A program made the translations under genes and the position numbers. A model generated the notes under the pieces. The model searched no databases. It saw only the letters and a list, made by a program, of their open reading frames with translations, and was not told where the DNA came from. Positions 2,382 through 5,378 of a stretch of 64,000 nucleotides of DNA are shown in pieces. Position 1 is the stretch's first letter; each line of letters starts with the position of its first letter. The DNA is from an uncultured Thermoleophilia bacterium (GTDB lineage: Bacteria; Actinomycetota; Thermoleophilia; UBA2241): the NCBI GenBank assembly GCA_963715985.1, contig CAVQSP010000011.1:608001-672000 (forward strand). The letters run 5' to 3'.

Positions 2382-2477
2382 CATGCGACCGTCTCGATCA
2401 CACTCGACACCTACTCGCGCGCGATCCCCGCCATGCAGGAGGAGGCCGCGGCGTTGATCGCGTATCTGGTGTTCGCG
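2382..2477 (+). pseudogene. Tyrosine recombinase C-terminal remnant 1
   Basis: Translates HATVSITLDTYSRAIPAMQEEAAALIAYLVFA; 80/96 nt identical to 3882-3977. Confidence 0.75.
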
Positions 2478-2493
2478 CAGGCGTGGAGCGGGC

Positions 2494-3606
2494 TCAGTCG
2501 AGGAAGTCGCGCAGGCCCTGCGCTGGGCCGTCCGTCCTCAGCTGGGCGATCGTCTTGGCCTCGATCTGGCGGATGCGCTCGCGCGTCACGCCGAACTGCT
2601 GGCCGACCTCCGCGAGCGTGTGCGGTTGTGCGCCGCCAAGACCGAAGCGCAGAGAGATAACCGCGCGCTCGCGCGGCGTGAGCGTCTCAAGGACGAGGGC
2701 CAGCTCTTCACTCTGCACGAGCGCCTCGACATCTGCAGGCGGCGAGGGTGAGTCCGTGTCGGGCACGAGCTCGCCGAGCAGCAGCTCGCCCTCGTCGCCG
2801 AGCGGCGTCTGCAGGGAGACGGTCTCCTGGCTGACCTTGAGGAGCTCGCGGACCTTGCGCGGCGTCACCTCCATCTCGGCGGCGATCTCCTCGCGCGTGG
2901 GCTCGCGGCCCGAGTCCTGGCGGAGCTGGCGCTGCACGCACAGGAGCGTGCTGAGCGCCTCGGTGATGTGCACCGGCAGGCGGATCGTGCGCGCCTGGTC
3001 GGCGAGTGCCCGGCTGACGGCCTGGCGGATCCACCAGGTGGCGTAGGTGGAGAACTTGTAGCCCCTGCGGTAGTCGAACTTCTCGGCGGCGCGCATGAGC
3101 CCGAGGTTGCCCTCCTGGATCAAGTCGAGGAGCGGCAGCCCGCGCCCCACTTGCCGCTTGGCGACGGAGACCACGAGGCGCAGGTTGGCCTCGATGAGCT
3201 GGCGAGTGGCCGCTGCGTCGTGGCGCTCGATGCGCCGCGCCAGCGAGACCTCCTGGGCGGCGCTGAGCAGTGGCACCTTGCTGATCGCCGTGAGGTACCT
3301 GCGCAGCGGGTCGCTGCTCGCCGCCTGCACCGAGAGGTTGGGCCGTGCGGGGAGCTCCTCTTCGCGCCCGCTCTCAGGGGGAGTCGGCGCTTCATCCTCG
3401 AGGATCTCGATGCCAGCGTCGGCGCAGGCGACGAGAAGCTCCTCGATCTGCTCGCCGCCGAGCTCCACCTCGCGCAGTGCAGCGGCCAGGCGGGCGCCCT
3501 CAACGTAGCCTTGCTCGCGGCCCTCCGCGAGCAGGCGGCAGAGCTCCTCTGTACAGGGCAGCGCGAACGGGGCCGAGCTGGTGCCGCCTTGCGGGGCCTG
3601 GCTCAC
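2494..3606 (-). CDS. RNA polymerase sigma-70 factor, RpoD/SigA-like
   Basis: Region 1.2 DPLRRYL, region 2 [34 protein letters not shown], region 4 TRERIRQIE, partial region 1.1. Confidence 0.92.
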
Positions 3607-3806
3607 GCGCCCTCCGCCGCCCTTCGCTACGAGGTTCGCCTGATCGTGTCGATGGCGCGCCGGCGCCGGCCGGTGCGAAGGGCAGCATGCCCTCCTCCCA
3701 CCAGGGGGCGGCCACAGGGACGCGCCAGAGAACTGCTCCCGATACTAACACCCGGGGCTGCCAGGGGAGGCGCTCGCGCGAGCACTTCGAGTGGGGCCGG
3801 CGGTCA

Positions 3807-3995
3807 GATCTGCGCCACACTCACGCCACCCTCGCGCTCCAGGCCGGCATCCACCCCAAGGTCGTCTCAGAGCGCCTTGGGCACGCCACCGTCTCGATCA
3901 CCCTCGACACCTACTCGCATGCCATCCCGGCGATGCAGGAGGAGGAGGCGGCGCTGATTGCGGGGCTGGTGTTCTCGACGGAACAGGCGAGCTGA
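3807..3995 (+). pseudogene. Tyrosine recombinase C-terminal remnant 2
   Basis: DLRHTHATLALQAGIHPKVVSERLGHATVSITLDTY (LRH, LGH and catalytic Tyr); no N-terminal part upstream. Confidence 0.85.
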
Positions 3996-3999
3996 AGCA

Positions 4000-5091
4000 C
4001 TACTCCCTGCTTGCGTCAGCAATCCGACCTATGGCTCCAATCCAGGCTCGTTCAGACCTCGCTTTCGTTACCTCACAGACCTCCATCACTGCGCCGACTG
4101 CTGCCCCAACAGCCCCGCCGACTACGGGTGCGCCGAGCGCGAGGCCAATCGTTGCGTATCCAGTTCCTACGCCCACCAGCATGTTGACGAGCGCGTGTCC
4201 CGCGATGGATCTCACGCCGCCCCCAGCCAGTGCAGCCTTACGCAGCCTCTTGCTGTAGGCGTCGCGCACGGCGGTCTCGATGTCGTCCCCCGACGCCAAG
4301 GACGCAACCTCGTCCTCAACGTCCCGCAATTCGGCCCTGAGGCGCGTCAGCGCAGGGAGTCTCCGCAGCCGCCCAACGTCCTCCCAATTGAGGCGCTCCA
4401 CGCGAGGCACCAAGATCGGCAGCGCGAACCCTCGGCTCTTCACGTTGGCGTCCGCAGCAAACCGCGCCGCAATCACGCGACCGTGATAGCGATCGACACT
4501 CGTGTCCCAGCCCGCGCACGCGCCCGCGGCCAAGTCATCCGCGATATGGCCGATGAGCGCTGAGCGCACCAGCTGCTCTGGCACGAGCCGTCGAAGGGCG
4601 TCGTTTTCAGCGTCGCGCTCCTTCCAGACCTCCGCTACCCGCTTCACTTCCGAACTGGACGAATCCAGCGACCCGAAGGAGATCCAGTCACAGGCCTTGG
4701 GGAACTCGAACGCAAACGGCTCCAGGGTCGCGTCCCAGCACATCGTGGTTGCGGAGCGGAAAACCTCCTGCATGGGCTCAGGCGACGGTACACCTGGCGC
4801 CTTTGCAGGCCCCATCGCCAACTTGAAGGGGCCAGCCTGGGCGGTATGGCGGTGGCGAGCAGTCTCCCAAGACGGCGATTGCCCTGTCGTATATGGCATG
4901 CGCAGGACGAGTGATGCCTCAGGGCCAGCCGTAATGAGACGGCGCCCCGTCTCGATCAGCACCTCTTCATACAGCAAACTCGCGACCTTGAGCCGAGCGC
5001 GGACACTCTCGACGGGAGCCCCAGCGACCAAGGCGTGAGCGTTCGAAGCCACCGGGAAGAAGCAGCACTCTGAGGCACGTGTGTCTGTCAT
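4000..5091 (-). CDS. Hypothetical protein with C-terminal Gly-rich hydrophobic segment
   Basis: Long open frame with protein-like composition; start chosen at ATG 5091; no family recognised. Confidence 0.6.
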   Translation of the reverse strand: MTDTRASECCFFPVASNAHALVAGAPVESVRARLKVASLLYEEVLIETGRRLITAGPEASLVLRMPYTTGQSPSWETARHRHTAQAGPFKLAMGPAKAPGVPSPEPMQEVFRSATTMCWDATLEPFAFEFPKACDWISFGSLDSSSSEVKRVAEVWKERDAENDALRRLVPEQLVRSALIGHIADDLAAGACAGWDTSVDRYHGRVIAARFAADANVKSRGFALPILVPRVERLNWEDVGRLRRLPALTRLRAELRDVEDEVASLASGDDIETAVRDAYSKRLRKAALAGGGVRSIAGHALVNMLVGVGTGYATIGLALGAPVVGGAVGAAVGAVMEVCEVTKARSERAWIGAIGRIADASRE

Positions 5092-5302
5092 CGGCTTGAG
5101 AGACTCGGCGCAGATGGCACGCACTGAAGACCGGGTCAGCTCAAGGCTATCAGCATCGAGAACCAGGAGAGGCGGCGCCTCGTGCTGGCCAGTGCCGTTG
5201 CGTACCCGGGAGTCTCGGCAGCAACATGTCGGCAATTTTAGCGACGTGGACAAGTTTGCTGCCGAACGCCCCAGCACGAAAGCGCCCTGTGCAGCACAGA
5301 AG

Positions 5303-5378
5303 TGGTGCCCCCGGGCTGGATCGAACAGCCGACACCAGGTTTAGGAAACCTGTGCTCTATCCACTGAGCTACGAGGGC
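5303..5378 (-). tRNA. tRNA-Arg (anticodon CCT)
   Basis: Reverse complement GCCCTCGTAGCTCAGTGGATAGAGCACAGGTTTCCTAAACCTGGTGTCGGCTGTTCGATCCAGCCCGGGGGCACCA: cloverleaf, TTCGA T-loop, CCA end. Confidence 0.96.

Follow-up and report, generated by a model that had tools for sequence, protein, structure and literature searches.

Why should a chromosome keep two copies of only the 3′ end of an integrase gene, each running up to the end of a gene on the opposite strand, beside a single transfer RNA (tRNA) gene? The question is raised by a 64,000-nucleotide (nt) stretch of DNA from an uncultured Thermoleophilia bacterium (assembly GCA_963715985.1, contig CAVQSP010000011.1, positions 608,001 to 672,000; hereafter the window, numbered from its first letter), in which two such integrase tails and the genes convergent with them form a series that ends at tRNA-Arg(CCT). 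We compared this locus with related genomes and with other loci, labelled G and L, respectively, where G000 is the window's own assembly (88.8% complete). On the basis of these comparisons we consider it likely, with a probability of roughly 0.75, that the decaying 3′ ends of one integrase clade serve as homology arms through which cargo genes are exchanged by homologous recombination.

Both tails lie on the plus strand. Tail 1 (2382-2477) corresponds to nt 1150-1241 of a full-length integrase profile of 1242 nt (E 1e-22; 26 aligned full-length rows, with one locus counted twice) and has lost its stop codon. Tail 2 (3807-3995) begins at the codons DLRH and covers nt 1075-1241 of the profile (E 3e-52) plus the stop. 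Tail 1 and the matching stretch of tail 2 (3882-3977) are identical at 80 of 96 nt, and 8 of the 12 changed codons are synonymous, exactly the counts reported in the original prediction, which had been made from the letters of the window. Tail 2 still matches PF00589 (E 2e-6) and is 90% identical in amino acid sequence to a full-length integrase of a relative (G022). Its stop, at 3995, lies 4 nt from that of an opposite-strand open reading frame (ORF; 4000-5277), and a gap of about 20 nt separates tail 1, which has no in-frame stop left, from the stop of a sigma-70 gene on the other strand (2494-3606), so that each tail does meet a convergent gene and the series does end at the tRNA, as had been described. 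The reported lack of an integrase N-terminus also holds: the window island carries the two tails only, and no full-length integrase of the tail clade was found in G000, where the nearest full-length relative is 40% identical and sits at tRNA-Arg(TCT).

Tails of this kind are abundant in the genus to which the window belongs. A profile search of 66 regions (1.9 Mb) from 31 genomes of one Thermoleophilia genus, whose frequencies are not those of a random sample because the regions were picked for matches to tails or to the attachment site (att), recovered 167 integrase pieces, 24 of them non-terminal. Among the 143 copies that extend to the 3′ end, 117 are tail-only, 25 are full length and one is cut by a contig end, and tail-only copies occur in 23 of the 31 genomes. 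Most truncated copies are short (93/118 below 240 nt), with tail lengths clustering at 60-120 nt within an overall range of about 30 to more than 500 nt. The tails stack at tRNA-Arg(CCT) and tRNA-Cys(GCA) amid tandem att copies, and 124 of 126 copies in att-bearing regions are oriented toward att. Sixty-five adjacent pairs of integrase pieces have no att in between, and 16 of 47 att-bounded units contain no integrase end. Under a home-made gene model, the gene next to a tail is convergent in 39 of the 40 cases where it lies within 100 nt, and in 90 of all 111, against a background of 61%. As a control, we took 19 other integrases (12 distant ones and 7 of other families in the genus), none of which has a same-strand copy of its own last 150 nt in its locus. 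This genus-wide comparison, with its many copies, supports the earlier proposal that the two window tails come from different functional relatives.

Some members of the census are unusual in their own right. G022 alone carries 11 full-length copies, and many of its contigs end in or near such elements. Another extreme tandem array (G073:C1:585000-685000) strings eight att copies over 90 kb. The integrase loci of L202/L203 and of L206/L208 are 100% identical over the 600 nt compared, in records labelled as different phyla, which reflects either bin contamination or very recent transfer.

The junctions of the tails indicate exchange. If a tail and the cargo that follows it were one relic, tails that share a 5′ junction would share that cargo as well. 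Among 25 pairs of tails with a common 5′ junction, all 20 non-twin pairs differ downstream, and the other five come from one near-identical genome pair, in which the downstream cargo agrees. The pattern was replicated in 115 metagenome loci retrieved through a 3′-end pattern (99 true tails and 15 full-length copies, with 45 cut by contig ends): new common-junction pairs below 97% identity had different cargo downstream in 36 cases and shared cargo in none, with one unclear, and pairs at 97% identity or above shared it in 17 cases and differed in 7, with 6 unclear. Altogether, 252 tails fall into 35 junction families, and more than one downstream cargo is found in 22 of 22 diverged families and in 3 of 13 near-identical ones. 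The converse is also true, in that 18 of 18 non-twin pairs with common downstream cargo differ upstream. Decay alone therefore fails to account for the arrays. The original prediction that recombination in the integrase 3′ end moves units without attC stands, but its unit, a tail plus the cargo that follows, must be turned around: as read from these junctions, the travelling unit is the cargo plus the tail following it on the att side.

Such units also recur between tRNAs. In a comparison of 155 segments that lie between integrase ends and att, Arg and Cys arrays proved to contain units that close with the same tail and are nearly alike in length (1013/1022, 545/533 and 626/608 nt in families G, H and J), and in comparable cross-tRNA pairs the junctions fall within 30 nt of each other in 13 of 16 cases (chance 0.26), with flank homology reaching the junction. 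Moreover, a 1495-nt unit that follows a tail in L378 recurs with 96% identity in L170, where it comes directly after an intact integrase, and the homology stops in the integrase ends on both sides. Units directly behind intact integrases are likewise present in L184 and G022:C22.

Within the integrase ends, the signs of crossover are dispersed. Private alleles go with the upstream flank in 12 of 43 cases at nt 1140-1170 and in 0 of 70 at nt 1215-1239, and with the downstream cargo in 14 of 68 cases at nt 1215-1239 and 24 of 116 at nt 1195-1239, against a background of 0.06-0.10. One tail (G024:C10:368032) is a visible mosaic, and close pairs switch identity near nt 970-1071, 1055-1088, 1173, 1191, 1206 and 1222. 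A fixed crossover point was rejected on account of this spread from about nt 970 to 1222. The region is also the best conserved part of the gene: fourfold-site identity between Arg- and Cys-type integrases peaks in the last 66 nt, at 0.72 against 0.50-0.64, and in 540 of 1485 pairs the longest stretch of identity lies at nt 1100-1200. In a tree built from the last 150 nt, Arg and Cys types are intermingled, while the 5′ part groups the Arg types; we do not count this as evidence. Dispersed crossovers in the best-conserved stretch argue for homologous recombination rather than a fixed site.

Alternatively, the integrase or another tyrosine recombinase might act on a site hidden in the integrase 3′ end, much as IntI acts on attC. 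Unit boundaries at the integrase end are sharp, conservation of the DNA is highest in the 3′ end, even at synonymous sites, and the clustering of tail lengths could be taken for the footprint of such a site, which later gene conversion could have blurred. Nevertheless, the switch points differ by up to 250 nt, tails that begin as late as nt 1196-1208 still exchanged cargo, and one exchange partner belongs to a more distant integrase clade (L379:5387). No hairpin or attC-like structure was detected by folding the last 78 nt across full-length copies (z -0.35 and -0.14) or the window tails (z -0.97 to +0.76), and the integrase is not of the IntI type, scoring 43.5 bits against the integron-integrase model TIGR02249, whose cut-off is 265. 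We thus regard a site-specific cassette system as unlikely.

The origin of the tails bears on a second alternative. Their 5′ breakpoints are scattered, no shared motif was seen at them, several copies carry internal deletions, and in two cases (G077:C6 and G071:C9) tails lie directly after putative arm-site repeats from which the att core is gone. The ratio of mismatches at codon positions (1+2)/3, which is 0.62 in full-length copies, reaches 1.75 in the shortest tails, and novel residues become more numerous as tails get shorter (rho -0.41, among kin that are not independent). Neither a promoter-like site nor a terminator was found at the tails by a scan tuned to the enterobacterial consensus. 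From the scattered breakpoints, the decay of the tails and the lack of a hairpin, we infer that tails were probably born by deletion in tandem satellite-like elements. A separate curiosity is the tail at L181:579, which has an expanded run of GAG triplets inside the conserved EEAAA codons.

It could be argued that nothing further happened, so that each tail and the cargo following it would be an immobile remnant of one element, in which the tail was kept by its nearness to the cargo and did not move again. The original prediction had named simple decay of tandem islands as its alternative, to be recognized by random breakpoints, att duplications and a total of two copies. The scattered breakpoints, tandem att copies, internal deletions, arm-site remnants and progressive decay that we observe all belong to this picture, as does the occurrence of the same cargo behind a full-length integrase in G018 and behind tails in G017 and G024. 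Accretion with later decay has also been described in the available portions of the literature about integrative and mobilizable elements (IMEs) and cis-mobilizable elements (CIMEs) (PMC5704250) and on tycheposons (10.1101/2020.12.28.424599). However, the copies number far more than two, and the 65 adjacent pairs without an att are present as well. Decay predicts common cargo at a common 5′ junction, which fails in all 22 diverged families, and it leaves both the mosaic tails and the equal-length cargo-plus-tail units of the Arg and Cys arrays unexplained; nor did any of the 19 control integrases leave a comparable copy of its 3′ end. As a sole account, decay is very unlikely, and it survives only as the birth step of the tails.

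Slightly less likely again is the possibility that recombination between tails only deletes units or converts alleles in resident arrays, with sharing between tRNAs reflecting separate captures of related genes. Deletion between direct repeats would by itself yield pairs with the same junction and different downstream cargo, and several cross-tRNA units are merely 82-85% identical, yet these units share the junction as well as the gene, and others stand directly behind intact integrases. An assembly artefact, in which unrelated contigs were joined through a repeated tail, is hardly credible: tails are repeats, and L403 and L404 have an exact 72-nt repeat in common, but the difference between most tails is about 10%, the cargo of paired units is 4-25% divergent, and contigs hundreds of kb long show the pattern just as independent short metagenome contigs do.

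If tails do act as homology arms, exchange could proceed as follows. The starting point would be the observed tandem pile-up of elements at tRNA-Arg(CCT) and tRNA-Cys. A deletion running from the att side of an old element through the backbone of a new one and into its integrase would fuse the old cargo to a tail, and the integrase end would then stand as a direct repeat on either side of the cargo. A crossover between two integrase ends might subsequently remove or duplicate a cargo-plus-tail unit, whereas, if the partner is an intact integrase, a crossover in its 3′ end might insert the unit behind that gene. Because such an insertion would leave the gene undamaged, an active element could then take the unit to another host or to the other tRNA. 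In a broader and more tentative version, to which we would give somewhat less than even odds, the conserved 3′ end of the satellite integrase is a universal entry site, genes bounded by tails circulate as mini-circles or in satellites through a community-wide pool common to the elements at tRNA-Arg and at tRNA-Cys, and tails persist because the cassettes that keep them spread. If this were true, the arrays would be an analogue of the integron that needs neither a dedicated site nor a dedicated recombinase and in which the decay of each element supplies fresh recombination arms.

Several observations weigh against exchange through tails. All of the evidence for movement is comparative, and cases within one genus are not independent, so the P values overstate. 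Many shared units are only 77-90% identical, which means that exchanges may be rare and old, and of the 32 full-length clade members that have 3 kb or more of sequence after them, only 9 have a tail downstream. The tails themselves decay, which argues against strong selection on their sequence. The order with the longest tail first, which simple accretion would lead one to expect, holds in only 11 of 18 closed units. The apparent cassette duplication in L403 versus L404 involves the identical 72-nt repeat and is maybe a short-read assembly loop. Finally, neither of the two window tails has a junction partner in the genome and metagenome sets.

In the intact parent element, the integrase (PF00589 with the SAM-like domain PF14659; phrog_1, E 1e-80) is aimed at the tRNA and convergent cargo sits between its stop and att, more precisely between the stop and a set of GTCGGCA-type repeats. 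In cargo-free copies the integrase stop is about 90 nt from att, with these repeats in between. Upstream of the integrase, intact copies have a large gene of no known family, and their divergent genes comprise a helix-turn-helix (HTH) gene, a primase/helicase, a ParB-methyltransferase, small ORFs and a single-stranded DNA-binding protein (SSB). The HTH gene matches HTH_17 in G007 and HTH_23 in G077, the large upstream gene is without a family in four other elements, and a primase-replicase (AAA_25, phrog_239, phrog_906) is present in all four elements scanned. One small ORF in G077 has a weak terminase match (phrog_4102, E 1e-9 over 25 residues), and small ORFs at the equivalent position in G007, G022 and G073 have none. 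No capsid, tail or lysis genes were seen among 37 (Pfam) and 21 (PHROG) proteins hand-picked from 110 predicted, and the clade integrase was not found in IMG/VR with the query used. The parent elements are likely of the phage-satellite type and may work like phage-inducible chromosomal islands (PICIs), whose core, in the part of PMC10085698 available, consists of an integrase, regulation of the alpA/merR/stl type, a primase-replicase, a small terminase and capsid morphogenesis genes, without tail or lysis genes.

The cargo is varied. A Pfam family was assigned to 43 of 65 candidate cargo ORFs and no match was found for the other 22, in a longest-ORF list that includes spurious frames. Nitroreductase, GNAT, SnoaL, Hsp20, OsmC, ZnuA, SpoIIE, hemerythrin and sigma-70 are among the families represented; most of the cargo consists of stress and metabolic genes, and a few genes are for defence (AbiTii, AbiJ-like and PD-lambda-1). 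RpoD-like sigma factors with region 1.1 occur as island cargo beside integrase ends in the window, G022:C7, G015:C6, L444 and G019:C34, and several chromosomal RpoD-like paralogues are also present in the genus. Relatives of the sigma factor in viral contigs are 47-59% identical.

The integration target in the window is the tRNA-Arg(CCT) gene (5303-5378, minus strand), the sole match of an Rfam scan. It overlaps an att repeat (5257-5353) composed of the tRNA 3′ half and 46 nt downstream of the tRNA, whose partner (97% identical over 97 nt) lies at G000:C11:606415-606511, about 1.5 kb before the window starts, and the position of this 97-bp repeat makes the tail series the right-hand portion of a tRNA island 6.9 kb long. 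Direct and inverted GGCAGCAA / GTCGGCA-type repeats (5215-5262) are predicted arm-binding sites of the integrase; the stretch 5200-5305 folds with a z of -2.84, and comparable repeats lie between the integrase stop and the tRNA in cargo-free elements. The terminal cargo ORF (4000-5277, minus strand; probable start 5091, 363 aa) has no match in Pfam, PHROG, PADLOC or NCBIfam. Its neighbours in the ESM Atlas are hypothetical proteins (score 0.97-0.98, low recognition), with DUF6236 on 12% of one cluster. The sigma-70 gene (2494-3606, minus strand), convergent on tail 1, has regions 1.1, 1.2, 2, 3 and 4 by Pfam and its best NCBIfam match is RpoD, under the cut-off; in G022:C7 and L444 a related gene comes directly after a tail, and in G015:C6 one is found 0.7 kb behind a full-length integrase. 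Directly 5′ of tail 1 is the right-end remnant of an insertion sequence (2324-2378, minus strand) that we take, from its translated sequence, to be of the IS3 family, and which shares 80% identity over 55 nt, with 28/30 in the core, with the terminus of an IS3-type transposase gene (G000:C14:176969-177023). A deletion has fused this remnant to tail 1. Further upstream, a block encoding a CDP-alcohol phosphatidyltransferase and an NTP transferase (489-2008, minus strand; PF01066 and PF00483; frameshifted in the G000 assembly) has three counterparts in tRNA-Cys arrays (G018, G069 and G015), to which it is 84-85% identical along some 1.5 kb. A HisJ-family PHP phosphatase (G000:C11:606959-607870) belongs to the same island shortly before the window starts, and it and the adjoining cytidylyltransferase and CDP-alcohol transferase genes possibly form one lipid or solute pathway.

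Because neither window tail has a 5′-junction partner, its unit can be assigned only by inference, with the block at 489-2008 placed with tail 1 and the sigma gene paired with tail 2 in a cassette. As a whole, the island fits a CIME, in that integration and transfer genes are lost and attL and attR are kept, with internal units that lack att. Islander, in the available text of PMC4383910, defines a tRNA island as flanked by the tRNA and a displaced tRNA fragment, with an integrase gene inside. The displaced fragment is present here, as the 97-bp repeat 6.9 kb away, and the integrase gene is absent from the window island, which has two tails only, and present in the islands of relatives. G000 yielded no intact integrase of this clade, so the window array is an immobile remnant. 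No sequencing run contains more than 0.11 of the words, and no RNA run is among those listed; in four runs one contig joins tail 1 to tail 2, with a 35-nt side, but this is possibly the tail of another strain and was not used as evidence.

Integron cassettes rely on attI, attC and IntI, and each unit has its own recombination sequence on one side. The arrays resemble them in their discrete units of one or two genes, in their uniform orientation and variable order and content, and in their entry beside an integrase gene, but have no attC hairpin, no fixed crossover and a repeat of variable length. An integron identity was ruled out on the grounds that there is no IntI, no attC hairpin and no single fixed crossover. 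The closest parallel may be sought instead in the promoter early stem-loop (PeSL) cassettes of the T4-like phages RB49 and phi1, where, according to the accessible text of PMC2839356, repeats of about 100 bp flank accessory genes, recombination deletes, inserts or circularizes a gene, crossover points vary, mini-circles have been demonstrated, and the authors themselves draw the comparison with integrons. Here too direct repeats flank accessory genes and crossovers fall within the repeat. However, PeSLs as described there are promoter-terminator elements of a lytic phage, whereas here a piece of the element's own integrase, now a pseudogene fragment, forms the repeat in chromosomal tRNA arrays, in which the end of an intact integrase would be the entry site.

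Other relatives of the arrays are found among tRNA-associated islands. IMEs accrete in tandem and decay to CIMEs, which keep att and lose the integrase (PMC5704250, in part), and tandem elements occupy one tRNA end in the ssrA islands of Dehalococcoides (PMC3146451, in part). Internal att copies, decayed members and a cargo history discordant with that of the integration module are common to these and to our arrays, but here att is often lost and the integrase 3′ end is kept and bounds units, a role for integrase fragments that does not appear in the available text of either account. In Prochlorococcus, PICI-like and cargo-bearing tycheposons at tRNAs push older ones into the island and leave behind partial tRNAs and fragmented integrases, the fragments being scattered remnants; a 3′-specific repeat that bounds genes and takes part in cassette exchange is not described in the accessible part of that work (10.1101/2020.12.28.424599). 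P2 phages and PICIs have an accessory hotspot between integrase and att in which genes are exchanged by swapping, by a mechanism that PMC13586616, as far as its text is available, leaves open. The arrays likewise hold variable genes, including some defence cargo, between the integrase and att of a satellite-like element, but their cargo is mostly of the stress and metabolic kind and is partitioned by integrase tails. No matching description of integrase 3′ ends as cassette arms was found in open-access full texts, supplements not being covered, and none is given in the available portions of PMC3146451, PMC4891358, PMC10085698, PMC4383910 and 10.1101/2024.05.22.595293.

Other elements lie at this tRNA and at others. 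On the far side of tRNA-Arg(CCT), window positions 6411-7750 hold toxin-antitoxin pairs (addiction module/ParE and MazE/MazF), each followed by an attC-like hairpin (6943-7027 and 7689-7748), and this looks like a true integron cassette cluster without an integrase in an actinobacterium. Another stretch of G000 (C14:336334-336995) has similar attC-like sites, some 5 kb away from an IntI-like gene with a frameshift (near C14:330250-331250). On the 5′ side of the tRNA, and aimed at it, is a remnant of a different integrase 3′ end (5977-6243, minus strand). In many relatives the tRNA 5′ half and bases upstream of it are present in repeated copies, so a second element family piles up on the 5′ side of tRNA-Arg(CCT), although G000 has no such copy. 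Single integrase remnants of related families lie beside other tRNAs (Ser, SeC, Arg-TCT and Gln) at G000:C11:128744, C13:139805, C14:403960 and C8:174479.

Taken on the comparative evidence, the integrase-end arrays are a real and reproducible variant of repeat-mediated cassette shuffling. They offer a concrete route by which accessory genes could be swapped in the integrase-att hotspot of phages and satellites, wherein the decay of tandem elements leaves integrase ends that would make cargo recombinable, and dead elements would feed live ones. Short integrase fragments, which are usually dismissed as debris, can hence mark the boundaries of cassettes, and the tails may be used as a probe to harvest stress, metabolic, defence and RpoD-like sigma genes from uncultured Actinobacteria.

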